Assembly: GCA_963762565.1 (NCBI GenBank)
Contig: CAVXLD010000003.1
Coordinates: 1-64,000, forward strand
Source of the DNA: an uncultured Verrucomicrobiae bacterium
Lineage (GTDB): Bacteria; Verrucomicrobiota; Verrucomicrobiia; Chthoniobacterales; JAFAMB01
Direction of reading: 5' to 3'
Length of the DNA: 64,000 nt
This document shows, piece after piece, positions 483 to 30,960 of this stretch. Both the position numbers and the translations under genes were made by a program. Position 1 is the first letter of the stretch. The number at the start of each line of letters is the position of its first letter. The notes under the pieces were generated by a model that worked only from the letters and a program-made list of their open reading frames with translations, was not told where the DNA came from and searched no databases.

Positions 483-520
483 ATACACTTACCGAAGTGT
501 TACTGTCGGTTTTTGGTATG
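483..520 (-). promoter_or_regulatory. CATA-N30-GTAT element copy 1
   Basis: Sense CATACCAAAAACCGACAGTAACACTTCGGTAAGTGTAT(TGG), ~50 bp upstream of the glycosyltransferase remnant. Confidence 0.7.
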
Positions 521-1033
521 GCGACGCCGCCTTGATCTATTGCTTCCCGACCACGTTTCAGTTGCCGCTTGGATTTTGGCGGGTCGATCTCGGGACTAAG
601 GACACCCTGGACGAAAACGTTCGGCGAAAACCCGAGGCTTGGCTCGGTTACTGAATCGTCCAGAGCGGAAACGGTTGCCTGCTTTTAGGTGGGGATCTTC
701 GTGTAAACGAGAACGGCTTCTTTTCTCCGAACTTTCAGGGGTGGAACGACCCTCGGTACCTTGGGAATGACGAAAGTCGAGCATCAGAACGAAACCTGAC
801 AGGATTGCGGATTGATATCGCGCTAGCATCTCCGGGAGGCTAAAGTTAACTTACTAGAAAGGGTCCGCTATGCTGGCGCCCGCCGCCGATAATAGAGTCG
901 GTCATCGAAGAGTTTGAAGACGCATGGGCGGTGGCAGAACGGCTGGTGAGCCAGTTGATTACGCCCTCAAAACCGTGACGTTTTGAGGCAGTGCGAGGAG
1001 GTGCGGACCGGTGCATCCTTATTTCCTCAGCCG

Positions 1034-1218
1034 GGCTTCGACGTCTATTCAACGGCGTGAGTAAAGCGGGACCCGAGGCTGTAGCCGGCTCGCGCTAAAA
1101 CGGAAAGGCGGCGTCGAACGCCGCCTTTGTTCAGTTACTACGAATTCCTACCTGGGACCGTGTTCTGCCGTGTAAGGGGTCAGACTTTAGCTTCGACGTC
1201 GATTGATTTGGCTAACAC
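1034..1218. repeat. Copy A of a duplicated segment (yciF 3' end + terminator); copy B at ~19757-19948
   Basis: Shared ggtcagactttagcttcgacgtcgattgatttggctaacac, shared hairpin and shared flanks. Confidence 0.85.
1104..1128 (-). terminator. Intrinsic terminator downstream of the yciF-like gene
   Basis: aaaggcggcg-tcgaa-cgccgccttt perfect hairpin with A/T flanks. Confidence 0.7.
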
Positions 1219-1680
1219 CTTCAGCTGTTTGTTAGCTGCCTCTGCTTCTTGCAGAGTTTCCGCTAAAAGTCCCGTTGCTTCTTTCTCACCTAACAGCTGA
1301 GAAAAGTTGTGAACGGTGCCGTATCCAGCCATTTCATAGTGTTCGACGCGCTGCGCTGCCGCGATGAGACCTGCATCCATGACCTCCGGGGCGGCATTCT
1401 CTTCCATCCACTCGTTACCCTCTTCAATAAGGCCTTTCATTGCTGCGCAGGTGTGACCGGTGAAAGGTTTTCCTAGTTTGGTGCTAATTTTATTCAGGCG
1501 CACCAACTGTTCCTTGGTTTGCGTCAAATGTGTGGTGAAAGCAGATTTCAATTCCGGCTTGGTTGCCACTTTGGCCATCTTCGGCCATACCGTTATCAGC
1601 TGCGTTTCTGCGCTGTGCAGATCTTTGAGTTGCTCAAGGTAGAGATCGTGTAGAGATGAAAATTTCATAATGTGTTTCAA
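1180..1680 (-). CDS. yciF: Ferritin-like stress protein, YciE/YciF (DUF892) family
   Basis: LKDLHSAETQ, HTCAAMKGLIEEG and DAGLIAAAQRVEHYEMAGYGT motifs. Confidence 0.92.
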   Translation of the reverse strand: MKHIMKFSSLHDLYLEQLKDLHSAETQLITVWPKMAKVATKPELKSAFTTHLTQTKEQLVRLNKISTKLGKPFTGHTCAAMKGLIEEGNEWMEENAAPEVMDAGLIAAAQRVEHYEMAGYGTVHNFSQLLGEKEATGLLAETLQEAEAANKQLKVLAKSIDVEAKV

Positions 1681-1747
1681 TTAGTTAGTAATCTTTTTTT
1701 ACCTGGAGGCTCTTTTGTTGTGCCCAGCGTTTCAATCAACTTTTCTC

Positions 1748-1787
1748 ATACTCTTTATCCACGGGGTTAGCGTTGCCCCTAGGTATG
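1748..1787 (-). promoter_or_regulatory. CATA-N32-GTAT element copy 2 (upstream of yciF)
   Basis: Sense CATACCTAGGGGCAACGCTAACCCCGTGGATAAAGAGTAT. Confidence 0.65.
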
Positions 1788-2005
1788 ACGAAGGATCCGG
1801 CTTCTGGCGTAATTAAACAGAGCATGAGCACCGAATGGCGGACTCTGTTAAGAACTCTTGGTGCCGATCGCTCCAAGATGACACGTTGCCTCCGTGTTAG
1901 CAGTACTGTACTACGTTCATGGGAGTCCGCAAGAGCATTCCGGTGAACGCTCAAGATTTCGTCGATCTCTCGGTTGCGCTTCCCCGTTGTTAAATGAACC
2001 TAGCC

Positions 2006-2905
2006 TCACCGCGCGCGAGTGTTGGACGCATTTTGCGAGAGAGCATTGAAACCGGCAATCACATCGAAGAGTTCCTCGTCAATCGAACTTTGGCGCAGCC
2101 GGTAAAAGGTTCGGTTCAAGTCGCTCAACAACGAATCGATATTCTTCTCCGCGCGCTGCATGGCCGCGAGACGGCTAGCGTTTTCGCTGGCTAAAGACTC
2201 GGCACAGGCTTTGAAGAGCGAGATGAAAAGATATTCGCGGATAAAAGCGGCCAACGCCGTTTCGTTATGACCGAAAAGTTCGGGCAGACTGTTAGTCGGC
2301 CAGCGAATTTCAGCGAGATCCTGTTGCCACTGTTTGTCAAGCGGAAGCAATCGTTGGCTTACCGGCTCACAAAGCGCGCCGGACGTGGGCCTGAGATGAA
2401 AGACACAGACCTGTGCGCACCCGCCAGCTCCCTGCTCTTCACCGGCCACTTGAAGTTGGCTGACCAGCGACGTAATCGCATTGACAGAACTCGGAACGGC
2501 AAACTTGCCGGCCAACGGAAGACCTGCATCTGCTAAACGCGCATAAAGGCGTTCGCCCACCGCCCATATTCTCTTTTCGCCCGGCAACGTTTCCAGGGAC
2601 TTCTCTACGAACTCCGCCATGGTTTCGTTAAATTGTCCCACCAATCCCTGATCGGAGCCAAAGACGATCGCTCCAACAACTCCCCCGATTGTCTCCCTGC
2701 TGGAATGCGCGGCAAAAGGTCCCGCTTGGCGGAAGCAGACACTCAAGCCGAGCTTCACGGAAAATTCGTAATCGGCCAGCGCACGCACGGCTGCTTCGTA
2801 TTGACCGATGCTGGAAGCGGCTACGGCCTTCATCGTACGGACGACGGATTCGAGCTTCACGGCGCCATCGATTTTGCGCCGCAGACTAACCTGGGTATCA
2901 CTCAT
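2006..2905 (-). CDS. atpG: N-type ATPase gamma subunit
   Basis: [49 protein letters not shown]. Confidence 0.95.
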
Positions 2906-4431
2906 GGCTTCTTTTGAAACGGCGCCAGTGATTGGCGAGCGACTTTCAGGACCGTTTCTCGATCCGCGTCATCAAGTTTGTGATCGGAAACGAAACGCTC
3001 TCTCACGTCCGGCGCAATCTGCATTGAGGCTGCGCAAAGAGCCCGTTCTGCTTCTCGCATCTGGCCGAGCGGAACGCTATCGAACAGTTCCTCGGTCAGC
3101 GCCAGAAGCACACTGATTTGTTCAACCACAGATACTGGCGCGCATTCCGTCTGCTCGAGACAGGCGCGGATACGCTGGCCGTGGTTGACTACCTTGCGAG
3201 TGGTTTCGTCGAGGCGGGAGCCGAATCGGGAGAAGGTTTCGAGCTCCTCGAATTGAGAATAAGCCAGTTTAAGATTTCCCGCGATGGCGTGATAGGCCGC
3301 AAGTTGCGCTTTTCCCCCGACGCGGGAAACGGACTTCGCCACGTCAACGGCCGGCAACGTTCCCAATTCGAAGAGCGTGGGCGAAAGGTAGAGCTGGCCG
3401 TCGGTGATGGAGATGAGATTGGTCGGGATATAGGCGGCGATATCCTGCGCCTCAGTTTCGATGATAGGCAGGGCCGTGAGCGAACCGCCGCCAAGTTCCT
3501 TCCGCAAATGGGTGGCCCGTTCGAGCAGCCGCGAATGGATGTAGAAAATATCGCCAGGAAAGGCTTCGCGACCAGGTGGTCTCCGAAGCAGAAGAGAAAG
3601 CTCGCGATAAGCGCGCGCGTGCTGCGTCAGATCGTCGTAAACAATGAGAACGTCGCGCCCCGCTTCCATGAAGTGTTCCGCGACGCTGGTCGCGGCATAC
3701 GGCGCGATATAAGCCAATCCGGGAGGATCGTTGCCTTCGCTGACCATAACGACGGTATAGTCCATTGCGCCGCCCGCTCGAAGTTCGGCAATAACCTTGG
3801 CCACCGCAGAAGCGCGTTGGCCGATTGCACAGTAGATGCAGAGAACGTTCTGGTCGCGTTGGTTCAGAATAGAGTCCAGGGCGATAGCGGTCTTTCCCGT
3901 CTGGCGGTCACCTAAAATTAGCTCGCGTTGACCCCGCCCCACTGGAACCAGAGCGTCGATGACCTTGATCCCCGTCTGCAAGGGGACGGTAACCGGCGCA
4001 CGATCCATGATTGCTTTGGCATCACGCTCGATGGGAAGACGTTTTCGTGTAGCAACGGAATCTTTGTTATCCAGGGGCCTCCCAAGCGGATCAATCACCC
4101 GGCCCAGCAGTTCGTCACCGACACCCACATCCATCACGCGACCGGTGCGCTCAACTTCATCGCCCGACTGTAGGTGCGAACAATCGCCAAGCAGGACGAC
4201 GCCGATCTCCCCTGCGTCAACGTTGAAGGCGATGCCATAGAGATCGCCCGGGAACCGAATTAACTCCTCAAACCCGACATCGGGCAGCCCGACGACCGTC
4301 GCAATGCCCGTCGAAACCGTGGTGATTGTACCCGTCTCATGGGCGGAGAATGAGGGTACAAATGCTTCTCTCGCCTGTTTCATTCCTGCGAAAGAGCGAT
4401 CGACCGCGGTGAGCAAGGAATCACGCGGCAT
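2902..4431 (-). CDS. atpA: N-type ATPase alpha subunit
   Basis: [40 protein letters not shown]; start set at the ATG overlapping the atpF end. Confidence 0.96.
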
Positions 4432-5230
4432 GGGGTAGGGGTAGAGCCTTTTGGGCGACAGGCTCAGGATCAAATTTGGGCTCCAGCAGCCGGTCCACCG
4501 AGCTGGTCAGCGATTTCAGATAATCGGCGATACTCCAAGCGATCTTTTGCCCATTCGCCGTCAACTCGATCCCGCTGATCAAATCGGGCCTGGTCTCAAA
4601 CTTAATTTGGGTTTCTTCACCGAAGATCGATTTGACGATCGCTTCAATCGCCGTTTTTTGCGGAGAGCCAAGCTCGAACGTACTGCGCACTAGGGCGGCT
4701 TCCGACGCGGCATGAGACCCTCCCTTTAGCTGCTCTATTTGCTTTTCATTCATGTCGCGCAGACGATGGAGAAAGATGTCCGTTATGCGCTCTTCAAGGC
4801 CCACATCCGCTAAATCGGCAAGAGTCTTTCGAGCGATGGAAAAGACTTCCTTTAGGGCGAGCGTTCCAATTTTCCCGTTCAAGTTCTCCATTTCGTCGTA
4901 AACGGATTTCTGCAACTTAGAACGTAGTTCTTCAGAATCCGTGCGTGCTCTTTCGAGGAATCTTTCGCGCTCGTTTTTTGCCGCACTTGTGGCTTGGAGG
5001 AGCAGCGCGGAGCGTTGCTGATCGAATTCCTCATTCTTATGCAGGAAATCGGTTTGCTCCTGCAGAGCCTCCGTTTTCTTCTTTTCTGCATCTTGAAGTT
5101 GGGTCTCAATCCGCTTTTCCCGCTGGTCGATCGCCGCAAGAACGGGCTTGTAAAGAAATCGCTTCAACAGCCAGACCAAAATCAGGAAGTTGACCGCTTG
5201 TGCCGCAACCGTGAACCAATCGATGAGCAT
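4421..5230 (-). CDS. atpF: N-type ATPase extended b subunit (b/delta-like fusion)
   Basis: [29 protein letters not shown], coiled coil, C-terminal [16 protein letters not shown]; no separate atpH. Confidence 0.93.
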
Positions 5231-5233
5231 GTT

Positions 5234-5515
5234 TTACTTCCCTGCCGCCTGGGTGATGACGTGGTTCCAAAAAGGGTTGGCGAAGATGAGGATCATCGAA
5301 ATAACGAAACAATAGATCGCCATCGATTCGATCATGGCCAACCCCACGAACAATGTTCGCGTGATGGTTGAAGAGGCATCGGGCTGTTGGGCTAGCGCGC
5401 TCAACGCCGCTGCCACGGCCCGACCTTGGCCAAGTCCTGGCCCCACGGCGCCGATGGCCATAGTGAGCCCGGCGGAGAGGATCGATGCAGCCGCGATGAT
5501 AGTCATGTTGTCCAT
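5234..5515 (-). CDS. atpE: N-type ATPase c subunit
   Basis: GPGLGQG..AQQPD..LFVGLAMIESMAIY..FANPFW. Confidence 0.96.
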   Translation of the reverse strand: MDNMTIIAAASILSAGLTMAIGAVGPGLGQGRAVAAALSALAQQPDASSTITRTLFVGLAMIESMAIYCFVISMILIFANPFWNHVITQAAGK

Positions 5516-5529
5516 ATTTTGTCGTTTCG

Positions 5530-6222
5530 TTAGGATGTCTTCTTCTCGAGTTGCCCGCCTTCGGTACCCGTGGCGGCTGCGATGTAAACCAGGGCCAGGA
5601 TGCTAAAAATATAGGCTTGGACCATACCGGTCAGGAGGCCGAGCGCGCTCATCACCGCGGGAAAAAGGAAAGGGGTGACGATCAGCAGGATACTGAGAAT
5701 CATCGTTCCGCTCATCATGTTGCCGAATAACCGGACGGCTAACGCCAGCGTCCGTGAAAATTCGCTGATGATATTAAAGGGCAACATAATCACGGTTGGT
5801 TGCAGGTAGGATTTGAGATAGCCGCCCCACCCACGTTCCTTGATGCCGTAGAACGGCACGGCCACAAACACGCAGAGAGCCAGGGCCGCAGTCGTCGAAA
5901 GCGAGCCTGTCGGCGGTTCGTACCCAGGTAAAATCGTGAAAAGGTTGGCGATGGCGATGAACAGGAAAAGGGTGCCGACAAACCCTAGATATTTCTCTGG
6001 TTGTCTCAACCCGACCTCTTCGATTTGTTTCTTCATGCCGAGGACAATGATTTCCAAGGCACATTGCCAACGCGAAATGGATATCCCCGCGGTGAGTCGA
6101 CGCGTGATCAGTTTCGAGCCAACCGCCAGCACGAGTATGAGGCCCCAGGTATAGACGATGGTCGCATTGAGTTTGAGGAAGCCTTGCTGCCAAAAGATAG
6201 TTTGGTCGGTACTAAGGTGCAT
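5530..6222 (-). CDS. atpB: N-type ATPase a subunit
   Basis: PPTGSLSTT, SRTLALAVRLFGNMMSG, QAYIF. Confidence 0.96.
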   Translation of the reverse strand: MHLSTDQTIFWQQGFLKLNATIVYTWGLILVLAVGSKLITRRLTAGISISRWQCALEIIVLGMKKQIEEVGLRQPEKYLGFVGTLFLFIAIANLFTILPGYEPPTGSLSTTAALALCVFVAVPFYGIKERGWGGYLKSYLQPTVIMLPFNIISEFSRTLALAVRLFGNMMSGTMILSILLIVTPFLFPAVMSALGLLTGMVQAYIFSILALVYIAAATGTEGGQLEKKTS

Positions 6223-6502
6223 GGATTCCTTTCTTGGTCGTCCGGGTGAGCCGGGTCACCACCGCACGTGCGATGACGAATCCAAGCAGACAGACTAGGA
6301 GGTTTCGCCAGTCGCCACGCGCGGTAAAATAGAATCCAGTCATCGCTAAACCTGTACGCAGCAGCGTGCTGCCGAAAAACCACAAGACCGGATTATTGGA
6401 GGTCAGGCTCTTCTGTACCGTCCACCAAAGACCACCGAAGAAAAACGCACCGATCAAAACACCCTCCATCAGGCTTACGGATAAAATGCTAACGTCACTC
6501 AT
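6212..6502 (-). CDS. atpR: N-ATPase accessory subunit AtpR
   Basis: FFFGGLWWTV..S.LLR..CLLGFVIAR; position between atpQ and atpB. Confidence 0.88.
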   Translation of the reverse strand: MSDVSILSVSLMEGVLIGAFFFGGLWWTVQKSLTSNNPVLWFFGSTLLRTGLAMTGFYFTARGDWRNLLVCLLGFVIARAVVTRLTRTTKKGIHAP

Positions 6503-6825
6503 CTTTTTTCTCCTCATCCTCTCGAATCGCCTTTTCTTCCTTGGCTACCCAATGCCAGGCATTTAGGCACCCGATAAACAGGCCGATGATGAGTAACGAC
6601 AACGTCCAGGAATGAATTCCCGGATACTGCTTATCAATAAAGATGCCAAGCAGAACTCCCAGCAGGGTGGGAATGGCCACTGCCCAGCCAATCAAGCCAA
6701 ACATCCCGAGCCCAAACCAAATGCCCTGCACGCCTCGACGCTTTGCCTTGAGTTTTCGGGCTTCGAGCGCGCCAACTTTCCGACTGAAAGCAGTTTCGCG
6801 GCTTTCGGACGTCGTTTCGGAATTT

Positions 6826-6833
<8 letters not shown>
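6495..6833 (-). CDS. atpQ: N-ATPase AtpQ (AtpZ/AtpI family)
   Basis: WFGLGMFGLIGWAVAIPTLLG..GCLNAWHWV. Confidence 0.9.
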
Positions 6834-8662
<1,829 letters not shown>

Positions 8663-8754: not shown

Positions 8755-8792
8755 ATACCCTTTTCGATGCGTTACCGCTTTCTTTAGGTATG
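8755..8792 (-). promoter_or_regulatory. CATA-N30-GTAT element copy 3 (upstream of the N-ATPase operon)
   Basis: Sense CATACCTAAAGAAAGCGGTAACGCATCGAAAAGGGTAT; ~8735-8828 is nearly identical to ~15483-15575. Confidence 0.75.
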
Positions 8793-8937: not shown

Positions 8938-8975
8938 CATATCCAAAAGCGATAGTAAAACTTCTAGAAAAGTAT
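8938..8975 (+). promoter_or_regulatory. CATA-N30-GTAT element copy 4 (divergent from the atp operon)
   Basis: CATATCCAAAAGCGATAGTAAAACTTCTAGAAAAGTAT(TGG). Confidence 0.65.
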
Positions 8976-20449: not shown

Positions 20450-20468
20450 GTGATCTTGAGAGCAGTGT

Positions 20469-21443: not shown

Positions 21444-21478
21444 AAAGAGGCGAACGCCGGCCTCGGGGGAGTTTGCCA

Positions 21479-21516: not shown

Positions 21517-21594
21517 AAGAAAATTGAGCAGGGTGAGCGTAGGATATCGCACAAATAGGAAAGTTACCCCATTATTTGGGTAAGCCTCGACAAG

Positions 21595-23391
21595 ATGAAA
21601 ACGGGTTCTAAAGCAGATCGATCCAGCAAGGTGTCCGACGCGCTCGCGACCGCGGCGACACCGCCGGTCGGCGGGCGTCTCGCTCCGCAGATGTTAATGG
21701 TTTTCCAAGCGCTCATTGCGTCGCCACAGCGGAATAAGATCGTGCTGCTCGGCGTCGCCCTCTTTGCCGTCATCGGCGCTACGGCCTACGGCCAGATCAG
21801 GCTCAATGCCTGGAACCGACCATTCTACGATGCACTCGCGCACAAGGATTTTCGCGAGTTCCTTGGCCAGCTCATGGTCTTCGGAGTCATTGCCGGCGGG
21901 CTTTTGGTCTTGAACGTGGCGCAGGCCTGGCTCAACCAGGCGACCAAGGTCAAGCTACGCGAAGGACTCGTGCGCGATCTACTCAACGAGTGGCTGAAGC
22001 CTCGGCGCGCCTTTCGCCTCGTTAATGCCGGCGAGATGGGTACCAACCCAGACCAGCGCATCCACGAGGACGCTCGGCATCTGACCGAGCTGACGGCCGA
22101 TCTTGGAATCGGGCTCCTGCAGTCTTCGCTCCTTCTTGGCAGCTTCATTGGGGTTCTGTGGATCCTTTCAGGAAACGTGCCTTTGCATTTGGGCGGGCGC
22201 AGCTTCGCAATTCCCGGCTACATGGTCTGGTGCGCCCTGGCCTCCGCCGGCACTGGCTCCTGGCTCAGCTGGCGAGTCGGCCGTCCGCTGATCCAGTTCA
22301 ATGCCGAGCGCTACGCTCAGGAGGCCGAATTGCGCTTCGCGCTTGTTCACCTCAACGAGCATATTGACGCCGTGTCGCTCGCCGGCGGCGAACAGGATGA
22401 AAACCAGCGCCTGACTACCGGGCTAGAGCACGTTCTGCGCGCCATGTGGCGGATCGTCAACGCGAGCACTCGGCTCACCTGGGTCACGGCAGGCTACGGC
22501 TGGTTCACGATCATCGTGCCGATCATCGTGGCGGCTCCTGGGTACTTCGGGAGAGATCTTTCCTTCGGCGCATTGATGATGGCCGTCGGCGCCTTCAATC
22601 AAGTGCAACAGACCCTGCGGTGGTTCATCGACAATTTCAGTAACCTCGCCGACTGGCGGGCCACGCTACTGCGGATAGCGAATTTCCGCCAGATGGTGGT
22701 GAGCATGGACACACTCGGGGCGACCGAGAACCGGATCGAATTCATCGAAGCACCAGCTGGCACGATCACCTTCGAGAACTTGCAGGTCGCCACCCCCACC
22801 GGCTGCACCATGCTGAGCGAGCAGCAGGTAGAGATTACGCCGGGCGACCGCGTGCTCATCGTCGCTGAGCCCGGCACCGGCAAAACTCTTCTGTTCCGGG
22901 CGATCGCGGGCTTGTGGCCCTGGGGCTCGGGCCGGGTCGCGCTGCCGTCGTCGGATGGGGTGATGTTCATGATGCGCGAGCCGTATGTGCCGCTGGGAAC
23001 CCTGCGCGCAGCGCTGACCTATCTCTCACCCGACACCACTTACAAAGACGAGGAACTGGTAGCTGTGCTCCAGTGCGCCGGCTTGAATCGCCTTTCCTCT
23101 TCGCTCGACAGTGTCGAGCGCTGGGAAAGGGAACTCACCTATGACGAGCAGCAATGCTTGGTCTTCGCTCGTATCTTGCTGCACAAGCCGCGCTGGCTGA
23201 TTATCGACGAAGCCCTCGACGCGTTGGAGGATGACGCGCGTAAGCGCATCATTACCCTCTGCCAGGACCGGCTCAAGGATGCCGCCATTATCTACATCGG
23301 TCGCCCCGAGACTGGTAGCCACTTCTTCAAGCGCGTTTTGCATCTGATCAAAGATCCGCGCGGAAGTTGCTTCATACCCCGCCTCAGCTAA
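21595..23391 (+). CDS. ABC transporter fused permease/ATPase, YddA/BclA (ABCD-like) family
   Basis: LNAWNRPFYDAL, NPDQRIHED, EAELRFAL, GTGKT..RAIAGLWPWGSG, LIIDEA. Confidence 0.9.
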   Translation: MKTGSKADRSSKVSDALATAATPPVGGRLAPQMLMVFQALIASPQRNKIVLLGVALFAVIGATAYGQIRLNAWNRPFYDALAHKDFREFLGQLMVFGVIAGGLLVLNVAQAWLNQATKVKLREGLVRDLLNEWLKPRRAFRLVNAGEMGTNPDQRIHEDARHLTELTADLGIGLLQSSLLLGSFIGVLWILSGNVPLHLGGRSFAIPGYMVWCALASAGTGSWLSWRVGRPLIQFNAERYAQEAELRFALVHLNEHIDAVSLAGGEQDENQRLTTGLEHVLRAMWRIVNASTRLTWVTAGYGWFTIIVPIIVAAPGYFGRDLSFGALMMAVGAFNQVQQTLRWFIDNFSNLADWRATLLRIANFRQMVVSMDTLGATENRIEFIEAPAGTITFENLQVATPTGCTMLSEQQVEITPGDRVLIVAEPGTGKTLLFRAIAGLWPWGSGRVALPSSDGVMFMMREPYVPLGTLRAALTYLSPDTTYKDEELVAVLQCAGLNRLSSSLDSVERWERELTYDEQQCLVFARILLHKPRWLIIDEALDALEDDARKRIITLCQDRLKDAAIIYIGRPETGSHFFKRVLHLIKDPRGSCFIPRLS

Positions 23392-23408
23392 TCGCTGAAG
23401 GACTCTAG

Positions 23409-23679
23409 TGTCCTGTCCCATAAATAACGTGGCTTTCGTTGCGATCAAAATGGGCCGCCGGCAAGGCGCGAGGAGGGCGCATATCTAGATCGATACGTAA
23501 CCGACGAGCAACGCGGCCGCCGGCTCATTTTCATCGCAACCCTCCGGGCCCTGGCCAGTTGGCTGTTTTTCCGCGTTGCTCGCTCGACCCGTATGAACCG
23601 GATATGGGCGCTTCGCTCGCGCCTTGAAAAACAGCCAACTGACCGACGGCGAAAGTCACGTTATTTATGGGACAGGACA
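23409..23679. mobile_element. ~271-bp MITE with long TIRs, flanked by CTAG
   Basis: ctag-tgtcctgtcccataaataacgtg...cacgttatttatgggacaggaca-ctag; internal body shared with 44469-44740. Confidence 0.9.
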
Positions 23680-23885
23680 CTAGTTAGTGCTTTTGCCTTG
23701 ATTTGCCGATCCTGAAAAATGAGGACCAACGTTTTGGTTCTTCTAACCAATCTTTATTAAGGTGTTTTGCCGAATTGGTAATCGGCGCCAATAACATTTC
23801 TTACGAATTTACGAAGATCATCGGAGGGATAGTTATTGCCTTTGGTCACGGTGCCACGCCCCTTCCCATTCTTACCTAACTCTCG

Positions 23886-24197
23886 TTAAATCCTGGCTGC
23901 CAACGCTGACACTCGCGTTGGACCCACTCGGGAGTGTCCTAAAAAGGATGCACCTTCTTCCAGGACTAGCCGGTTAGCTTTCAAGTCGCCAATCAACACG
24001 GCACTTGAGAAGATTTTACAAGTATCTCCGATGAAGACGTTCCCACGAACTTTGCCGGAAAGTTTTAGGGATCGAGCCCTAACTTCTCCGTGAATGTCGG
24101 CGTTTGGTCCAAGAGTAAGTTCGCCTGCGGCAGCAATGTCGCCGTTGAGTGTACCATTAAACATTAGATCGTTGCTTTTGCTTATCGTGTTATCCAT
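23886..24197 (-). CDS. Bactofilin (polymer-forming cytoskeletal, CcmA) family protein
   Basis: NGTLNGDI..LTLGPNADIHGEV..SGKVRGNV..GDLKANRLVLEEGASFLG beta-helix pattern. Confidence 0.85.
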   Translation of the reverse strand: MDNTISKSNDLMFNGTLNGDIAAAGELTLGPNADIHGEVRARSLKLSGKVRGNVFIGDTCKIFSSAVLIGDLKANRLVLEEGASFLGHSRVGPTRVSALAARI

Positions 24198-24276
24198 TTT
24201 GTACCTTCTCGGCGTTATGACGCCGCTGGTTTTTTTCTGCTTCCGCCCAGTGTGGGTGGCTTCTGGAGAAGTTAGC

Positions 24277-24403
24277 TTCCCCGAACTTCGATGTGCGTCG
24301 ATTGACGGTTAGCTTGGGTAGCTTTTGGAGAGAGCGGCGGTTCGAAATCCCGGCTCCAGAATACACTGCTACGGGTCAAATGTCGCCTACTATTATCGAA
24401 ACC
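24277..24403. repeat. Long copy of the 3-copy conserved intergenic element, upstream of bactofilin
   Basis: Collinear with 13581-13707. Confidence 0.85.
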
Positions 24404-24608
24404 GGGGTGGTTTGTCGCGCCGTCGGCCGATTTTGCCATGGTTGACCCGGGTTCTGTACATTAGTCATACTCAAACGCAACGGCGTGTCCCATGTGCTCG
24501 GCAGGAAGCCTCGCATAGGCATTGCCATTGTGGTCGCCGGACCTACCCTGACCTGGTGGGGACGAGAACTGGATCAAACACAGGCAGCTTATAAATGTCT
24601 ACACAACC

Positions 24609-24755
24609 ATGAACAAGCTTCAAATGAAAGGCTCCTGGAACGTGATGAAGGGAAAGCTTAAACAGCACTTCGGAAGGTTTTCGCAAGGTAAGGCGGATGA
24701 GCTGTGGGGCAGGCTTCAAAAGACGCTCGGAAAGTGGAAGAAGTCCGGTAGATGA
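24609..24755 (+). CDS. CsbD/YjbJ-like stress microprotein, probably internally shortened
   Basis: [42 protein letters not shown] lacks the usual LTDDDL segment; absent from the ORF track. Confidence 0.7.
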
Positions 24756-25025
24756 CAAGCTACCGAAGGCATTTATGCGCTGCGATTTCCGAGAAACAGT
24801 GGATGACGTTGACCAGCATCTGCTGGGTCTCAAGGAAATAGCAAATCAGGGAATCGCCAGTGCCCTCAATTGTCAGATCGCGCAACGCTAAGCAGTTGGC
24901 CGACGGCGCTGAATCCGTTTTGGCCGCTACCGGGCGAAGCGCGGAAGATTGCCTACTCTGTTTTCCTTTGGCATTTTTCGATTAGCCAGCCATCTGCGGC
25001 GGAACGTTAACCCACGGTTGGGGGC

Positions 25026-25063
25026 CATACCGCAATACAACCGTAACTGGACCTTATGAGTAT
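25026..25063 (+). promoter_or_regulatory. CATA-N30-GTAT element copy 14
   Basis: CATACCGCAATACAACCGTAACTGGACCTTATGAGTAT, upstream of the SDR remnant. Confidence 0.6.
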
Positions 25064-25120
25064 AGGTAACTAGGTCGGAACCGGGACGATGCTCGAACAA
25101 ACACGGAAGAACAAGTGCTT

Positions 25121-25561
25121 ATGAATACTAAGAACATCGATGGAGAAGCTTTGGGCGGAGGAATTGCGGTCGTTACCGGAGCATCGTCCGGACTTGGAAA
25201 GGTCTACGCGGACCGTCTAGCAAAGCGGGGATACGACCTTCTCCTGGTGGCGCGGCGTAAAGATCGGCTACACATCCTCGCGCAAGACCTGCAAAAGCAG
25301 TATGGGATTCAAATCTGGGATGTGGCAGGAATAGACTCGGATGCGATAGACCAAGCCACGGTTATGACCGCCGAGGACTGCGTCGACGCGGCACTCGCGG
25401 GCCTTGACCAGGGCGAGGCTGTCACTCTGCCTTCAGTCGAAGATTCGACGCTTTGGTCCGAATTCGATGTTATTCGCAACAAGATGCTGGAAGCCTCCAA
25501 GAGCAGCCAGCCTGCTTCGCGATATGTAAGCAGCGCCAAGGAGCAAGCACTCGTGACTTAA
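25121..25561 (+). pseudogene. SDR oxidoreductase with an in-frame internal deletion
   Basis: VTGASSGLG..LLLVARR joined directly to the C-terminal IWDVAG..VDAALAGLDQGE..PASRY; no NNAG or YxxxK core. Confidence 0.8.
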
Positions 25562-25676
25562 CCTAACGCCCGCTTGGTTGGGCCGCGCACGCGCGGCAGA
25601 CGGAGATCGTGGAAAACCATGAACAATGAAATCCTTTGAACAAAGGTGTTCTAAACCGAGAACGCCAGCGGAGTCA

Positions 25677-25906
25677 TGAAAAGCTGCAATAACCGTGGAT
25701 CCATCGAGGCTCTCGGACTGCTGCCAGGGCTTGATAAAGCTCTAATGGCGTGTCCCATGTGCCACTCGCGGGAGATTTGGGTTGAGAACAATCCGAACTC
25801 CACGCGCTCTGTTTCCATCATGTGTCGAGAGTGCCGCTTCCAAGTGTCGCTACTGCCGCGCGCACAGGCGATCGCAGCGTGGAATAGCATGGGGTCGGCA
25901 GAATAG
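25677..25906 (+). CDS. Lar-family (restriction alleviation)-like zinc-ribbon protein
   Basis: LMACPMC..CREC..AIAAWN pattern. Confidence 0.6.
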
Positions 25907-26034
25907 TTGGGCTAGAGGTAGCGTCGCTCGATGCGCCTTAACCTTGAGAGGTCATGTGGACTGCCTGTAGTCATTAACCAGGCTTAGGCACAATAGTCGT
26001 GACGATCTAGCTCTTAGTCCCCGGAAGCTTTTGT

Positions 26035-26072
26035 CATACGCAAAGGCAACGGTAACGCGTTAAAAAGAGTAT
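26035..26072 (+). promoter_or_regulatory. CATA-N30-GTAT element copy 15 (upstream of csrA)
   Basis: CATACGCAAAGGCAACGGTAACGCGTTAAAAAGAGTAT. Confidence 0.75.
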
Positions 26073-26263
26073 GCTGGCAAGCCGTTGAAACGGGTGAGAT
26101 TGGCTGTGTCTGCCCCCGTATTATTATGCCATCAATCGTCAATTTTTGGCAGCCGGCCTTCCACCGAATCAATCCGTTGGTAGGTCGAGGCTCCGTTTTT
26201 TAAGGGTGCAGAAGTGGAAGAGCGACAAGCTGAGTGAAACAGACAAAGTAGAAAGCGAAGAGG

Positions 26264-26509
26264 ATGTTAATTCTGTCAAGAAGAGTGCAAGAGGGAATCG
26301 TAATTGGCGATACTATTCACATCAGAGTAACCAGGATCGACCGTGACACCGTCAAAATCGGAATCGAGGCACCGAGAGAGATTCCGATCTTTAGAACGGA
26401 AATCTACCACCCGAATCATCAATTGATTTCGAACAAGACGGACACGGCTGCTCAACTCTCGACTCGAGCGGAGGCGGTCCGATTCGAGGAAAAGGCTCCC
26501 CCCGTTTAG
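26264..26509 (+). CDS. csrA: Carbon storage regulator CsrA
   Basis: [36 protein letters not shown]. Confidence 0.92.
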
Positions 26510-26667
26510 TCAGCCCATCACTTCCGGCGGCGCGAAACTCTCGTCATAAGGCTCAGGACGTTAGACACAACTTTGCATATCAACCGGGTATGCTTTCTTC
26601 TAAGGAGATCGGTTGGCTCTGACTGAGTGTCATCGTGACGGGTAATCTCCTGATGCGATCATCGCAG

Positions 26668-26916
26668 TTATGGCTCGCGAATGTAAGACGACCGCGGAAT
26701 GCCGCGGGTCACATTGGCGATATCGCAGCGTAACCGGGAACAGATTTTGCAGAGCACCACGAAAGTCAGATTTCGTTCGCCTCGCTCGATTCCACCAAAG
26801 TGACTCCTGTTCAGTCCACAATCCCTGGCGAAGCCGTTTTGGGTAAGCCCGAGAAGCTTGCGTTCCGCTTGGATTCTACGCCCCAATCGGAGGAGTTCAA
26901 CGTTGTCATTTGCCAT
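26668..26916 (-). CDS. XRE-family HTH transcriptional regulator (copy 1)
   Basis: LGRRIQAERKLLGLTQ..GGIERGERNLT. Confidence 0.88.
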   Translation of the reverse strand: MANDNVELLRLGRRIQAERKLLGLTQNGFARDCGLNRSHFGGIERGERNLTFVVLCKICSRLRCDIANVTRGIPRSSYIREP

Positions 26917-26981
26917 GTTTGAAATCCTATTTATCACGAAACCTGCCGAGAGTAAGTCGCCCCGGGTGAATAGGTTTCCCA

Positions 26982-27020
26982 ATACTCTTTTCGAAGCGTT
27001 CCCTGTTGCTTTCCGTTATG
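26982..27020 (-). promoter_or_regulatory. CATA-N31-GTAT element copy 16
   Basis: Sense CATAACGGAAAGCAACAGGGAACGCTTCGAAAAGAGTAT(TGG). Confidence 0.75.
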
Positions 27021-27179
27021 GCGAAAGGATGTCCGCGTGACATCCGTTTTCTCAGGCGGGAGAAATTCAGTAAATCGCCGACGACGCAGATGACCTGATT
27101 TTGAGATACGTCATCCAGTTTACTGACGGAGCTAGAACGGAGTGTTCGAGTTCAGAAGGTGCCCTGCGATTTCGGCTGG

Positions 27180-27527
27180 TTAACGCAAAGGTGCAGCTTT
27201 CTTCAACGTGGGCGGCTCCTTACGGTTCATGCGGAAAAACAGAAGAACCAGACTGAGCAGACAGCCAGTAGCAAGTGCCAGGACGATGGTATGGAGCGGC
27301 TGTTCTTGCAGGTATAACTCAACCCGGGACCGTAAGACTTTAGCTCCTGATGCGGCGTCGCTCCACGCTTCCTCTGTCGCTCCCTGCGTGTTATGCATGG
27401 TTCTTCGCGTCGCTCGGCCGATTTCCTCCGCGGTCGAGATCGCGTGCGCCTTTACGTTTTCAAGCGCGACCGCCACCTGCTCCATTGCGTCGTCGACTGC
27501 TCTGTTAAGTTTATCTGTATTATTCAT
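27180..27527 (-). CDS. DUF883/ElaB-like tail-anchored protein (paralog of 14996-15307)
   Basis: Shared LxRAxDD..TAxEIGRA.R..QGATEEAW.DA.S..YL..QPL plus a TM helix. Confidence 0.7.
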   Translation of the reverse strand: MNNTDKLNRAVDDAMEQVAVALENVKAHAISTAEEIGRATRRTMHNTQGATEEAWSDAASGAKVLRSRVELYLQEQPLHTIVLALATGCLLSLVLLFFRMNRKEPPTLKKAAPLR

Positions 27528-27653
27528 AAACGTCTTTCTCAGAGGTTCCCCTAGATTCGGCTGCCGCCTATCTATCCAGGTGAACGTTCCCCGGCAAAGC
27601 CACAGTCTTAACGATCAAGATTGTGACTGATCCGGGATAAGTACCTTCAGCCG

Positions 27654-28754
27654 CTAAGCTGTTTGGCGCCGGCGCAGGCCCGGTATCCGTAGGGAACTGG
27701 TTGCAACCCGAATTTTGTTACGGACGCTGACCAGCATTTCGCGCGTCACTTCGAGCTGCTCGGCTTTGCGTTGGTTCCACCATTGAGCGGTTTCCATTAG
27801 CGTCTGATAAGCGCTGGCAATATGAGTGGCACTGGCTTCGGGGAGAGCCGGGTTGGCTAGCGTCACCTCGAGACGAAGCTTCGCTTCTGCAAGTTCAGCT
27901 AGTACGATCTTTTCTGTCGAGACTCTGCGCAGGTTACGGACCAGCCCGATCTTGGAAAGGACCCAGATGATCCATTTCGTCGGATCGATCTGCCAGGGTT
28001 TAACGCCATTCCGGTAATCGTGCTGAAACTCGTGATGATAGTTATGATAACCTTCACCGAAAGTAAGGATCGCCAGGATCCATGAATCGCGGGCGCTGCA
28101 TTTTGAAGAATACGGTTGCGCACCGATATAATGGCAGAGCGAATTGATGCAAAAGGTAGCGTGTTGCAGCGTCACCACCCGTAACACGCCAGCGATTAGG
28201 AAAGCGCCGAGAGCTGCTTTCCAGCCGCCCCACAAAAAACCGATACTCGCCGGAACCCCGAAAGCGACGAGCACTGCGATCAAGTGAATGTAGCGATCTT
28301 GCCATACCAAGAGTGGATCCTTTTTGAGATCCGCTACATTATCGAAACACGGCAGCGGCTTTAGCTTGAACATCAGCCAGCCCATGTGGGCATAAAAGAG
28401 ACCTTTGCTGATACAATAAGGATCGTCATCGTGATCCACATGCTTATGATGGCTGCGATGTTCGCAGGACCAAAGAAGAACGGAATTCTCAAATGCAGCA
28501 GCGCCGAAGATGACCGTAAAGAACCGCACGATCCAGTGAGCCTGGAAAGTCAAATGAGAAAAAAGTCGATGGTACCCTAAGGTGATAGAGAATCCGCAAG
28601 CAGCCAGCATGGCAAAGAAAAGAACGATCTGAAATCGATCAATGCCAAAGAACCAGAGGTACACTGGCACGGCCGTGATTGAAAGGAACAGCGTCCCGAT
28701 CAGAAATGAGCTCACGAGCCAATTGACTCGATGGAAGGGAATTCGTGGAAACAT
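27654..28754 (-). CDS. Delta-9 acyl-CoA/acyl-lipid fatty acid desaturase
   Basis: His boxes GYHRLFSH, HRSHHKHVD, GEGYHNYHH; DPTKW. Confidence 0.93.
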   Translation of the reverse strand: MFPRIPFHRVNWLVSSFLIGTLFLSITAVPVYLWFFGIDRFQIVLFFAMLAACGFSITLGYHRLFSHLTFQAHWIVRFFTVIFGAAAFENSVLLWSCEHRSHHKHVDHDDDPYCISKGLFYAHMGWLMFKLKPLPCFDNVADLKKDPLLVWQDRYIHLIAVLVAFGVPASIGFLWGGWKAALGAFLIAGVLRVVTLQHATFCINSLCHYIGAQPYSSKCSARDSWILAILTFGEGYHNYHHEFQHDYRNGVKPWQIDPTKWIIWVLSKIGLVRNLRRVSTEKIVLAELAEAKLRLEVTLANPALPEASATHIASAYQTLMETAQWWNQRKAEQLEVTREMLVSVRNKIRVATSSLRIPGLRRRQTA

Positions 28755-28859
28755 GGTGCTGGTTGATAATTTGGCCGGACAGATTTACAAATCCGCTCTC
28801 GAGAGATGTGGTTGTGTCACAGCCGTTTGCAAGTGTCACCTCAATTCGTCGGAATCTCC

Positions 28860-28897
28860 CATATCATTTTAGACGTTTAGCTCTTCCAAAAGAGTAT
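28860..28897 (+). promoter_or_regulatory. CATA-N30-GTAT element copy 17
   Basis: CATATCATTTTAGACGTTTAGCTCTTCCAAAAGAGTAT(TGG). Confidence 0.65.
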
Positions 28898-29027
28898 TGG
28901 TAGAGATCCGGCTCAGCTAACAGGTTTGAAGGTTACCGCATTTAGACGCTGTAGCGAGAAGAAGATCAATAACGGCGACAACTTCCAGCTAAGACGGTTA
29001 GTGTGAAGTGCGTTGCCAAGCTGGCCG

Positions 29028-29486
29028 ATGAATTACGATAGTACGATAGACACGACCTTGCACATCAACCGGGTACGGTTTCTCCTGGGTCAGTGCGCCA
29101 TTAACCTTTTGGAGCGCGGATCGAACCACGACGCCTCCAAATTGGAACATCCGGAGAAAGCAATTTTTGACGCGGTCGGTAACCGACTCGCAGTGATTAC
29201 CTATGAGGGGGAAGAGTACAAACAATCGTTAACGGACTTGAAAGTGGCGCTTGACCATCACTATGTCCATAACACTCATCATCCGGAACACTATCCGAAC
29301 GGGATTGATGGCATGTCGCTTCTCGACCTCATTGAAATGCTGATGGACTGGAAAGCGGCCAGCGAGCGGCATCCAGGGGGAATGAGCATTGCTGATTCTA
29401 TAGAACTCAGCAGTCAACGATTTTCGGTAAACGAACAGCTGAAAAAGATTCTGCTGAACACGGCCAGGGAGATTGGTTGGGCCTGA
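29028..29486 (+). CDS. DUF5662-like HD-type protein
   Basis: HDASKL, ALDHHYVHNTHHPEHY, MSLLDLIEMLMDWKAA. Confidence 0.8.
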   Translation: MNYDSTIDTTLHINRVRFLLGQCAINLLERGSNHDASKLEHPEKAIFDAVGNRLAVITYEGEEYKQSLTDLKVALDHHYVHNTHHPEHYPNGIDGMSLLDLIEMLMDWKAASERHPGGMSIADSIELSSQRFSVNEQLKKILLNTAREIGWA

Positions 29487-29598
29487 TTTCGGGTCAGGGA
29501 GAGCTAATAAAGATTAGCTCCTACGGAGCAGGCCTCCGACGGTTTTCCGTTCCGAGCGCCCGCAGCGATGCCGGCGTTTCCTAGACTCCAGGACGCGA

Positions 29599-29856
29599 TC
29601 AGCGCAGTTTAGGATCGCGGAGGTAAGACAAACGCGGGATGCCTTGAGTTATCCGAGCGACGTCGCAGCGTAGCTGGCTACAAATTTTGCAGAGGATCAA
29701 GAAAGTAAGATTTCGTTCACCTCGCTCGATTCCCCCAAAGTGACTCCGGTTTAATCCGCAATCCTTAGCAAAGTCGTTTTGGGTGAGCCCGAGAAGCTTA
29801 CGTTCCGTCTGGATCCTCCGGCCCAATCGAAGAAGTTCGACGTTGTCGTTTTCCAT
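29599..29856 (-). CDS. XRE-family HTH regulator (copy 2)
   Basis: Near-identical to 26668-26916. Confidence 0.88.
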   Translation of the reverse strand: MENDNVELLRLGRRIQTERKLLGLTQNDFAKDCGLNRSHFGGIERGERNLTFLILCKICSQLRCDVARITQGIPRLSYLRDPKLR

Positions 29857-29922
29857 ATGTGGAATCCTGCGTGTCATATACCTGGCCGAGACCCAAGTGG
29901 CCTTGGATAAGCGCGTTTCCCA

Positions 29923-29961
29923 ATACTCTTTTCGAAGTGTTCCCCGTTGCTTTCCGATATA
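29923..29961 (-). promoter_or_regulatory. TATA-N31-GTAT element copy 18, in the divergent XRE/LysR intergenic region
   Basis: Sense TATATCGGAAAGCAACGGGGAACACTTCGAAAAGAGTAT(TGG). Confidence 0.75.
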
Positions 29962-30060
29962 GCGGAAGTATGGTCCTTAAAAGGATCTTTCTTGCTCGGG
30001 TTGATTCACGAATCGCGCAAACGCGATGGCCCGGACACGGGCGAGCAGAGCTCGCTGTGA

Positions 30061-30960
30061 ATGAAACTGCGTCACCTGGAATACTTTGTCGCTGCTGCCG
30101 AAGAGTTAAATTTTACCCACGCGGCGGGTCGGCTGAATGTGTCGCAGCCGCCATTCAGCAAACAGATCCAGGACCTTGAAGGTGAACTCGGAATTAATCT
30201 GTTCCAGCGCGAGCGAAAAGGCGTTGCGTTGACGGCAGCCGGAAAAGCGTTCTTGATTGATGCGCGCGGGATCTTGGAAGCCTGTGATCAGGCGGTCAAA
30301 AAAGCCCAGCGAATCAATAGAGGGGAGCTCGGGGAGCTAACCGTCGGCCATATGGCGGCGCTCACACACGACTTCCTCGGTCGCGCGCTAGAGCATTGGC
30401 ACAAGGAGTCGCCGGGCATCGTCATTGATTGTGTGGAGATGGACGCGATAGAACAAGAACGGGCATTGCTTGAGGGCCGCATCGCGGTCGGCATTCTAGT
30501 CCTCAGTGATCGGCCGATCCTTGAGTTGCTGAGCGCTGAGTTGCTCATAGAGCACCCGGTCGCAGTAGCCCTGCCAAAGTCGCATCCGCAAGCTGGTCAG
30601 TCAGAGATCCGGTTGCCGATGCTGAAAGAGCAACCGTTCATTGGTCTAAATCGGATGTACCCCGCCTACGGCGATTGGTTGCACACCGTCTGTCACCGGT
30701 CCGGATTTACTCCGCACATTGTGAGGGAGGCGGACGGGGTGGGGAGCGCTCTGGCCCTTGTGGCCGCTGGCCTTGGCATCGCACTGGTCAGTGAACCGGT
30801 CAGAAGGTTCCCAGCGCGCGAGGTTGTCTTTAGAGATTTGGTGGCGCCCAAACCTATTAGAATACCTCTTGGGGCTGTTTGGAAGAGAAACGAACTTGAG
30901 TCTGGAGTTGTCTCTAAATTCGTAAAGACGTTGAGACAAGCCTGCATCCGGACAGCTTAG
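30061..30960 (+). CDS. LysR-family regulator (BenM/CatM/AlsR-like)
   Basis: MKLRHLEYFVAAAEELNFTHAAGRLNVSQPPFSKQIQDLE..LTAAG..LVAAGLGIALV. Confidence 0.95.
   Translation: MKLRHLEYFVAAAEELNFTHAAGRLNVSQPPFSKQIQDLEGELGINLFQRERKGVALTAAGKAFLIDARGILEACDQAVKKAQRINRGELGELTVGHMAALTHDFLGRALEHWHKESPGIVIDCVEMDAIEQERALLEGRIAVGILVLSDRPILELLSAELLIEHPVAVALPKSHPQAGQSEIRLPMLKEQPFIGLNRMYPAYGDWLHTVCHRSGFTPHIVREADGVGSALALVAAGLGIALVSEPVRRFPAREVVFRDLVAPKPIRIPLGAVWKRNELESGVVSKFVKTLRQACIRTA

Follow-up and report, generated by a model that had tools for sequence, protein, structure and literature searches.

The DNA considered here, referred to below as the window, is the first 64 kb (64,000 nt) of contig 3 from the genome of an uncultured Verrucomicrobiae bacterium (6.1 Mb, 15 contigs, 54% G+C; G000 below). 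Its first 30 kb form an island of genes among which a 38-bp element, (C/G)ATA-N30-GTAT, recurs, and the gene of a LysR-type transcriptional regulator (LTTR) lies at 30061–30960 beside one of the best-scoring copies. Since the window begins at a contig end, the island may extend further left. A preliminary description of this DNA had listed 18 copies, all of which are present. The spacer between (C/G)ATA and GTAT, counted by eye after the copies had been lined up at their GTAT ends, is 30 nt long in 13 of them, 31 nt in four (16681, 21405, 26982 and 29923) and 32 nt in one (1748), as had been reported. The part that holds a fixed register reads G-n-A-A-C-r-C-k-T-C-G-A-A-A-A-G-r-G-T-A-T-n-G-G; its length from G-n-AAC to GTAT-n-GG is constant except for one added base in the copy at 1748, and AAC is present in 17–18 and GTAT in 16–18 of the 18 copies.

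A 24-column matrix was built from this fixed-register part of the 18 copies and run over the whole genome with a cut-off of at least 19.5 bits; three genomes simulated with a first-order Markov model and matched in dinucleotide make-up served as controls. The genome contains 34 such sites against 0, 1 and 1 in the simulated genomes, and since 16 of the 34 are training copies, 18 are independent. The sites are clustered: 17 lie in the first 30 kb of the window and 11 in a second island on contig 5 (493–538 kb), with two each on contigs 12 and 7, one on contig 1 and a borderline one on contig 15, which has no GTAT and was dropped, leaving 33 sites for the later counts. The claim that no copy occurs past 30 kb is correct within the window, where the matrix gives nothing above 12 bits beyond that point. 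The wider idea that the motif is confined to the 30-kb island does not stand, because about half of the strong sites are elsewhere, including the second island with its own LysR paralogue. Of the 33 sites, 29 fall outside every open reading frame (ORF) of at least 120 aa, and such ORFs make up 78–82% of those contigs; all sites have an ORF start within 400 nt on their sense side, which is a weak test.

The copies in the window are given below with their matrix scores and, where one occurs, the −10-like hexamer at a standard offset of 23 nt after GTAT, followed by the two regulator genes that flank copy 18. The copies at 1748 and 25026 are the weakest of the 18, and at least two further copies, marked as additional, were absent from the preliminary description, as was the minus-strand reading of copy 17, which points to the desaturase gene.

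483–520, minus strand: copy 1, 29.5 bits; predicted −35 TGGAGA and −10 AAAATT within 454–482; upstream of a 127-aa ORF (49–432).
1748–1787, minus strand: copy 2, 6.2 bits; AAC and GTAT separated by one base more than usual; standard offset lacks a clear −10; precedes the DUF892/YciF gene (1180–1680).
8755–8792, minus strand: copy 3, 32.1 bits; putative −10 GACAGT; upstream of atpD, first gene of the N-ATPase operon atpD-C-Q-R-B-E-F-A-G (2006–8647).
8938–8975, plus strand: copy 4, 27.4 bits; only small unannotated ORFs downstream (9137–9409 and 9526–9750).
9777–9814, plus strand: additional copy, 14.0 bits; putative −10 GAAATT; upstream of the split P-type ATPase ORFs (10078–11205 and 11172–12452).
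15503–15540, minus strand: copy 5, 34.0 bits; putative −10 GATGGT; upstream of a 103-aa ORF (14996–15307).
15714–15751, plus strand: additional copy, 20.9 bits; putative −10 GAGTAT; in the second island, a DUF5670 ORF follows the paralogous promoters.
16681–16719, minus strand: copy 6, 29.5 bits; 31-nt spacer; putative −10 GAAACT; upstream of the DUF2630 gene (16178–16492); promoter and leader duplicated at 21359–21457.
16949–16986, plus strand: copy 7, 26.1 bits; putative −10 GAGAGT; before the DUF3309 microprotein gene (17022–17102), whose ATG is 6 nt after the hexamer.
19257–19294, minus strand: copy 8, 29.8 bits; GTGT in place of GTAT; upstream of a MalK-like ABC ATPase gene (17957–19195).
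19707–19744, minus strand: copy 9, 30.1 bits; putative −10 GAGATT; upstream of a 123-aa ORF (19314–19685).
20069–20106, plus strand: copy 10, 29.2 bits; putative −10 GAAAGT; upstream of a 108-aa ORF (20123–20449).
20469–20506, plus strand: copy 11, 28.7 bits; putative −10 GAGATT; upstream of a 70-aa ORF (20645–20857).
21405–21443, minus strand: copy 12, 29.5 bits; 31-nt spacer; putative −10 GAAACT; 5' end overlaps a 101-aa ORF (21101–21406) as called from the first start codon.
21479–21516, minus strand: copy 13, 32.3 bits; precedes copy 12 by 74 bp; nothing resembling a −10 at the standard offset.
25026–25063, plus strand: copy 14, 17.1 bits, degenerate; followed by a truncated SDR ORF (25115–25561).
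26035–26072, plus strand: copy 15, 26.3 bits; putative −10 GAGATT; upstream of the CsrA gene (26264–26509).
26982–27020, minus strand: copy 16, 35.6 bits, the best in the genome; 31-nt spacer; upstream of XRE paralogue 1 (ORF 26668–26982, true start probably internal).
28860–28897, plus strand: copy 17, near-palindromic, 26.1 bits on the plus and 14.3 bits on the minus strand; between a DUF5662 gene (29013–29486, plus) and a fatty-acid desaturase gene (27654–28754, minus).
29923–29961, minus strand: copy 18, 35.5 bits; 31-nt spacer; inside the 183-bp gap between XRE paralogue 2 and the LysR gene.
29599–29877, minus strand: XRE paralogue 2, an XRE-family helix–turn–helix protein of 92 aa; conserved divergent neighbour of LysR.
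30061–30960, plus strand: gene of the LysR-type regulator, 299 aa; candidate binder of the element.

Most of the gene assignments made earlier for these units are borne out by Pfam, namely DUF892/YciF, atpD, DUF2630, the MalK-like ATPase, the SDR fragment, CsrA, both XRE proteins, DUF5662 and the microprotein (DUF3309); the label 'DUF883-like' is unconfirmed, as that protein gives a weak apolipoprotein-type match, and several other small motif-preceded proteins of the window have no family assignment. The N-type ATPase operon on the minus strand is complete under one copy of the element, with beta, epsilon, gene-1 protein (AtpQ-type), AtpR, a, c, b, alpha and gamma. The P-type cation ATPase at 10078–12452 is split into two overlapping frames, through either a frameshift in the gene or an assembly error, and the second island holds an intact copy of at least 806 aa. 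The DUF3309 microprotein, of 26 aa on the plus strand, reads MSTILIIIVLVILFGGGGGYWFSRRR and has 28 aa in genus g8. Between the tandem copies 13 and 12 lies a hairpin with a T-run (21447–21464), and copy 13 has no obvious product. The stretch 20544–20972, around the 70-aa ORF, is partly repeated at 24760–24956 (90–94% identity, middle deleted), immediately ahead of copy 14, which is degenerate, and of the truncated SDR ORF, so this part of the island resembles decaying duplicated DNA.

Elsewhere in the genome, motif-linked genes encode Hsp20, SPFH/Band 7, PRC-barrel, DUF5670 and AI-2E transporter proteins, a second desaturase, a full-length SDR and an AraC/PocR regulator. The six sites outside both islands include ones upstream of the Hsp20, SDR and AraC/PocR ORFs, and one site is followed within 400 nt by the start of an aconitase ORF, with a 66-aa ORF in between. 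Also present in the second island are GroES/GroEL, phosphoketolase and acetate kinase, PPK2, a CBS protein and a P-type ATPase. In model bacteria, a gene set of this kind is controlled by RpoS, SigB or EcfG. Directly past the second island, at 538–543 kb of contig 5, are genes for a DUF932 protein and a TrwB-type coupling protein, which hint at the remnant of a conjugative element; given this border, and since LysR, XRE and DUF5662 are found in only some genomes even within the genus, the islands may be accessory DNA.

The element is not peculiar to this genome. A 19-nt pattern allowing up to two mismatches matches 16 of the 24 genomes of the family and 2 of 16 genomes from other families of the order, and the reversed control pattern gives 0–1 matches per genome. 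When the matrix was applied at 16 bits or better to fetched loci of G005 (same genus), G012, G020 and G023 (another genus), 42 sites were obtained, again clustered. Blocks of 83–99 nt consisting of promoter plus leader are duplicated, some of them beginning a few bases before CATA; such duplication accounts for part of the uniformity of the copies, but not for their conservation across genera.

The protein encoded at 30061–30960 has an N-terminal HTH_1 domain (Pfam, E 2.8e-22) and a LysR_substrate domain (E 1.1e-34). Its nearest solved chains are ItcR (7w06; PMC9636186), CbnR (E 1e-33), BenM (E 1e-30) and CatM, with ItcR, CbnR and BenM spanning 1e-30 to 1e-38, while OxyR (E 3e-17) and CysB are much more distant. 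The compounds sensed by ItcR, BenM and CbnR are itaconate, benzoate and muconates. In the recognition helix, SQPPFSKQIQ corresponds to AQPPLSRQIQ in BenM and to SQPPITRQMQ in CbnR, and both the matches to solved chains and the QPP helix place the protein in the BenM/CatM/CbnR clade.

At an E-value cut-off of 1e-60 or better, orthologues of this LysR occur in 10 of the 24 family genomes and in none of the 16 genomes from the order's other families. They occupy 14 loci in 10 genomes and six genera, and in 11 of these a site lies in the gap at the LysR start. In G007 the site is 350 bp upstream; in G008 the contig ends 285 bp upstream of LysR; and the second-island paralogue of G000 (C5:519067, 81% identical to the 30061 LysR) follows a motif-driven operon and has a site 128 bp after its stop codon. 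The divergent arrangement seen in the window, with copy 18 between LysR and XRE, recurs in G002, G005, G012 (twice), G015, G016, G020 and G023, whereas in G007 and G017 the XRE gene is co-oriented with LysR and sites are present on both LysR flanks. In relatives of six genera, LysR adjoins the best-scoring copy. Residues 1–60 of LysR are nearly invariant in all 13 full-length orthologues, including two with 58% overall identity, as would suit a regulator that has many sites to bind. In the genomes of those two, the motif keeps ATAC, AAC and GTAT, and its N7 stretches have changed. In G013 (C292 5123–5563), a LysR remnant with an internal deletion, which retains about 25 N-terminal residues fused to the C-terminal part, stands beside XRE, and one strong site is on the same contig.

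Downstream of GTAT, a second conserved feature appears at a constant distance. The six bases that follow GTAT read (T/G/A)GGAGA, and the third of them, which corresponds to the G of TTGACA, is G in 29 of the 33 own-genome sites and in 39 of the 42 sites of the relatives. An nAnnnT hexamer, with A and T as its second and sixth bases, begins exactly 23 nt after GTAT in 23/33 and 31/42 sites, respectively, and no other offset from 6 to 28 exceeds 7; A at position 2 alone is found in 28/33 and 40/42. The hexamer most often reads GAGAnT. Orthologous promoters differ inside it (CACGCT, CAGCCT, CACCCT and CAACCT) and retain A2 and T6. Such a pattern, together with the weak −35 placed exactly 17 bp before the hexamer, characterizes −10 elements recognized by sigma factors of group 1 or 2. 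A search for TTGnnn-N16–18-nAnnnT upstream of the 43 tRNA genes returned, for many of them, pairs ending 10–24 nt before the tRNA, such as TTGACG-17-TATTGT, TTGACA-16-TACCCT and TTGACA-16-GATGCT; as these promoters share the hexamer form, the nAnnnT style of −10 is native to the genome.

Because most ORF starts in this area are uncertain (after the promoter at 19707, for instance, an ATG is followed by a stop codon in the G012 orthologue), leader lengths were used for the DUF3309 and Hsp20 genes only. The conserved DUF3309 microprotein (26–28 aa, MS..LFGGGGGYW[FY]SRRR) has four orthologous promoters in three genomes, and in all of them its ATG lies 5–9 nt after the hexamer; no Shine–Dalgarno sequence was seen at the usual 5–10 nt before it when the sequences were read by eye. 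Both observations fit a transcript that starts directly after the hexamer, and the DUF3309 mRNA is probably leaderless. A generic sigma-70 scan of 14500–31000 did not call the motif-linked core promoters, which fall below its 9-of-12 threshold, so that it is uninformative either way. Three soil metatranscriptomes contain 5–19% of the sampled sequence words from 19001–29000; the metatranscriptome contigs over 11001–31000 are short and come from related strains, and some cross promoters, but starts, strand and level are unreadable from them and carry-over of DNA is possible.

Two other placements of core elements around GTAT were considered and rejected. An nAnnnT hexamer 4 nt after GTAT (GAAGCT) is present in 26/42 sites in genus g8 but in only 10/33 in G000, and promoters of the GTATGCGTG subfamily, where a good hexamer occupies offset 23, do not have it. 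An RpoH-type arrangement, with TTCGAAA standing for CTTGAAA and CTnAT 15 nt further on (by eye), has a downstream element that is too variable in G000, and neither 287-aa sigma factor of the genome reaches the cut-offs of the RpoH models.

The element itself can be read as ATAC-N7-cAAC-N7-cTTC-N7-GTAT, i.e., as four 4-nt elements in 11-bp phase, of which the outer half-sites, ATAC and GTAT, are conserved in that phase and the inner ones, cAAC and cTTC, are degenerate; each box is only weakly dyadic. A few sites located between divergent genes form almost perfect palindromes along all 37 bp, for example TACGCTTTTAGA-N11-TCTAAAAGCGTA at C5:512781, and the 28860 site and its orthologues are further examples; such sites suggest a binder with two-fold symmetry across about 37 bp.

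From the sequence features above, we propose, as a reading slightly likelier to be right than wrong, that the 38-bp element is the upstream, regulator-binding part of an activator-dependent promoter of about 67 bp, bound by the 30061 LysR and its paralogue. In this model, a weak −35 (tGGAGA) would follow GTAT directly and the −10 (nAnnnT) would stand 17 bases further on, which would place the transcription start about 36 nt after GTAT, the hexamer at −12 to −7, GTAT at −39 to −36 and the element as a whole at about −76 to −36. If the hexamer is the −10, the element would contain two 15-bp T-N11-A boxes, 22 bp apart and centred near −65 and −43, each with an A-rich centre. The layout postulated earlier, two LTTR boxes of which the proximal one abuts the −35, is compatible in its geometry with the 22-bp box distance and the hexamer 23 nt after GTAT. 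In descriptions of LTTR promoters, the regulatory site lies near −65 and the activation sites beside or over the −35 (PMC11495319). We infer the identity of the binder, the direction of control and the transcription start from these arrangements: a tetramer of the 30061 LysR, together with the second-island paralogue, would occupy the boxes, and the effector-bound form would recruit RNA polymerase to the weak promoters, by analogy with BenM and CatM at PbenA and PcatB. The regulon would then comprise about 30–35 promoters in the two islands and at single sites, placed before general-stress-type genes for Hsp20, DUF892/YciF, DUF2630, DUF3309, DUF5670, PRC-barrel and SPFH proteins, fatty-acid desaturases, the N-type ATPase operon, P-type ATPases, CsrA and the two XRE proteins.

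Several observations weigh against this proposal. LTTRs are not expected to read bases in the central N7 between their boxes, and AAC, the best-kept triplet of the element, falls precisely there. LTTRs also usually have a strong distal regulatory site; here, the promoter-proximal half is better conserved than the distal one. The dyad symmetry within each 15-bp box is weak, and the T-N11-A pattern by itself is of low information content. In copies 1748 and 21479 the standard offset shows no −10-like hexamer, in the XRE promoters the position of the −10 is taken by GACTTG or GACTTA, with the final T missing, and at the Hsp20 promoter the Shine–Dalgarno sequence GGAG begins 7 nt after the proposed −10, so that the leader would begin at or within it. 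With regard to the regulator, G014 has three good sites (24–32 bits) and an XRE homologue, but searches of it, including one that used the invariant DNA-binding domain, found no LysR orthologue; its assembly is in 700 contigs and 94% complete, and the LysR gene may simply be missing from it. Finally, the XRE gene co-occurs with the motif as tightly as LysR does, so linkage alone cannot separate the two. The earlier claim that LysR controls these genes is accordingly retained in part: its clade and its place beside the best copy in six genera speak for it, while the equal linkage of XRE and the sites of G014 speak against it.

The equal linkage leads to an alternative that we consider unlikely, in which the small XRE protein (29599–29877, 26668–26982) reads the element, alone or with LysR, as an autoregulated activator that would contact sigma region 4 from about −42. 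The two best sites of the genome (35.5 and 35.6 bits) belong to the two XRE genes, and all relatives with the system keep the XRE promoter; in G014 an XRE homologue (49% identity) accompanies the good sites and the search for a LysR orthologue gave none, and G020 has a second XRE–desaturase locus with a site and no LysR alongside. However, XRE identity drops to 49–58% in the distant genera where ATAC, AAC and GTAT persist and where the LysR DNA-binding domain is invariant, and XRE is absent from the second island of G000, which has 11 sites together with a LysR paralogue. In addition, small XRE dimers usually read palindromes of 14–20 bp rather than a 37-bp element with outer half-sites 33 bp apart.

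Somewhat more doubtful is an unlinked binder, either a response regulator or another of the many LysR-type proteins, for which LysR and XRE would be merely conserved members of the regulon. The best-kept bases (AAC and TCGAAAAG) lie off the proposed LTTR half-sites, the two halves form a 22-bp direct repeat, TnCGnAAAGrnnA (by eye), that would also suit regulators binding in tandem, and G014 again has good sites with no LysR orthologue found. On the other hand, synteny with the islands is seen for no other regulator gene, the NarL-type regulator (32814–33452) does not adjoin the system in relatives, and the near-invariant LysR DNA-binding domain, as well as the position of LysR by the best site in six genera, would have to be coincidence.

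The alternative-sigma promoter, in which GnAAC would be the −35 and GRGTAT a SigB- or ECF-like −10 with a start 6–8 nt after GTAT, is given a low probability, a little below that of an unlinked binder. GGGTAT and GAGTAT do resemble SigB/SigF-type −10 elements and AAC an ECF −35, the gene set has the look of a general stress regulon, the ECF-type region-4 model has 41 matches in the genome, 29 of them above the curated cut-off, and the Hsp20 leader would have a comfortable 42 nt. Sigma-70-family holoenzymes need a spacer of about 16–18 nt, and the 12 nt from AAC to GTAT amount to a 10-nt spacer between hexamers, which is too short for them. The sigma genes with region 3 are limited to RpoD and two RpoD/RpoS-like group-2 paralogues, which score 119–123 bits against a SigB/F/G cut-off of 234, and there is no sigma-factor gene among the scanned ORFs of either island; moreover, neither the fixed nAnnnT 23 nt downstream nor the DUF3309 ATG 5–9 nt after it is explained. 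SigB/SigF-type promoters have a GTTT-type −35 some 14 nt before a GGGTAT-type −10. The suggestion that GTAT is a SigB-type −10 thus loses its footing, as there is no GTTT −35, AAC leaves a 10-nt spacer and no SigB/F/G sigma gene was found in the genome. ECF promoters have an AAC-containing −35 and a CGT-type −10 about 16–17 nt apart; the 12 nt from AAC to GTAT, with no CGT element at the expected place, led to the rejection of this type, and a sigma-54 promoter, in which GG and GC at −24/−12 are spaced by 10 nt, was likewise rejected, since the GG after GTAT has no GC at the right distance (by eye), the genome having one sigma-54 gene. The two paralogues, on contigs 13 and 12, are closely similar sigma factors of 286–287 aa with regions 1.2, 2, 3 and 4, RpoD/RpoS-like and below every curated cut-off. 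The weak ECF-like match of the NarL-type regulator at 32814–33452 is below the cut-off, and Pfam assigns that protein REC and GerE domains. That the element is a mobile, recombination (cassette) or structured-RNA element and not a control site is very improbable, and the cassette alternative raised earlier is largely refuted: the duplicated blocks of 83–99 nt, the inverted CATAC and GTATG ends, the patchiness of the system among relatives and the DUF932 and TrwB-like genes bordering the second island would suit it, but the ATAC variants (ATAA, AGAC, ACAC and ATAG) are uncompensated in GTAT, so there is no stem, Rfam gives no match in 1–32000, no recombinase is among the scanned island ORFs, and all copies point to a downstream ORF, 29/33 being intergenic.

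The LysR-dependent promoter proposed here has its closest parallels in BenM and CatM of Acinetobacter baylyi (PbenA and PcatB) and CbnR of Cupriavidus necator, which belong to the same LTTR clade with the QPP recognition helix. BenM and CatM bind ATAC-N7-GTAT, Site 2 with its A-run abuts the −35, and the tetramer shifts sites on effector binding (PMC6628147). The present element would share with these systems the ATAC/GTAT half-sites with 7-nt centres, the boxes about 22 bp apart and the A-run proximal box abutting a weak −35 (PMC6628147, PMC11495319), as well as the regulator gene divergent from a target. It differs in its degenerate inner half-sites (cAAC and cTTC), the AAC between the boxes, the better-kept proximal half and the XRE gene as the divergent target; furthermore, BenM and CatM serve a few aromatic-catabolism operons, in contrast to the roughly 30–35 stress-type promoters in two islands envisaged here.

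One LTTR for tens of promoters is familiar from OxyR, CysB and LeuO, and the OxyR site, of about 37 bp, likewise has four elements one helical turn apart. Unlike OxyR, however, to which the 30061 LysR is only distantly related in sequence, the sites here are far more uniform and lie in islands with their own copy of the regulator. LysR-type global regulators are already known, and many LTTRs act in this way (PMC11495319); a literature search found no description of a LysR-type general-stress regulon in Verrucomicrobia. The gene content, with Hsp20, YciF-type, DUF3309, PRC-barrel and small membrane or LEA-like proteins, is like that of the RpoS, SigB and EcfG regulons. Hsp20, YciF-type, DUF3309 and PRC-barrel families are typical of stress regulons run by sigma factors. 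Unlike those, the system described here would apparently rely on a DNA-binding activator at a sigma-70-type core, and no gene for a SigB/F/G-type sigma was found in the genome.

A broader scenario, which we offer tentatively and judge on balance improbable, is that the soil Verrucomicrobia of this family possess a general stress or dormancy programme run by a single LysR activator, with XRE as its first target and without a dedicated sigma factor, and that this programme travels as accessory stress islands that bring their own regulator copy and recruit genes by duplicating the 67-bp promoter cassette with its leader. The question is of interest since general-stress switching outside Proteobacteria and Firmicutes is largely unknown, and the system offers a defined promoter architecture, a named candidate regulator and about 30 directly testable target operons. 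If the proposal holds, a metabolite-sensing one-component regulator would be doing the job of a sigma factor, as one half of a compact, portable regulator–promoter pair; if the LysR link fails, the motif still marks a coherent, conserved stress regulon with another regulator.

The window has some further features. Four pairs of direct repeats unrelated to the motif (1078–1222/19806–19951, 13628–13708/24324–24404, 14723–14791/16070–16138 and 12467–12518/23779–23830), present in two copies each, are 51–93 nt long and 86–94% identical, some of them with hairpin-and-T-run ends. Past the LysR gene, an RRM-domain RNA-binding protein is encoded at 31899–32243 on the minus strand, and its gene adjoins LysR in G005, G015 and G002 as well (80–93% identity). 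Paralogous NarL-type response regulators and receiver-domain proteins are encoded at 32814–33948, 37346–37711 and 44989–46570, and a 91%-identical copy of the first NarL-type regulator lies at 561 kb of contig 5, about 23 kb past the second island. Between the second and third of these stretches, an ORF of 1955 aa extends over 38230–44097 on the plus strand.

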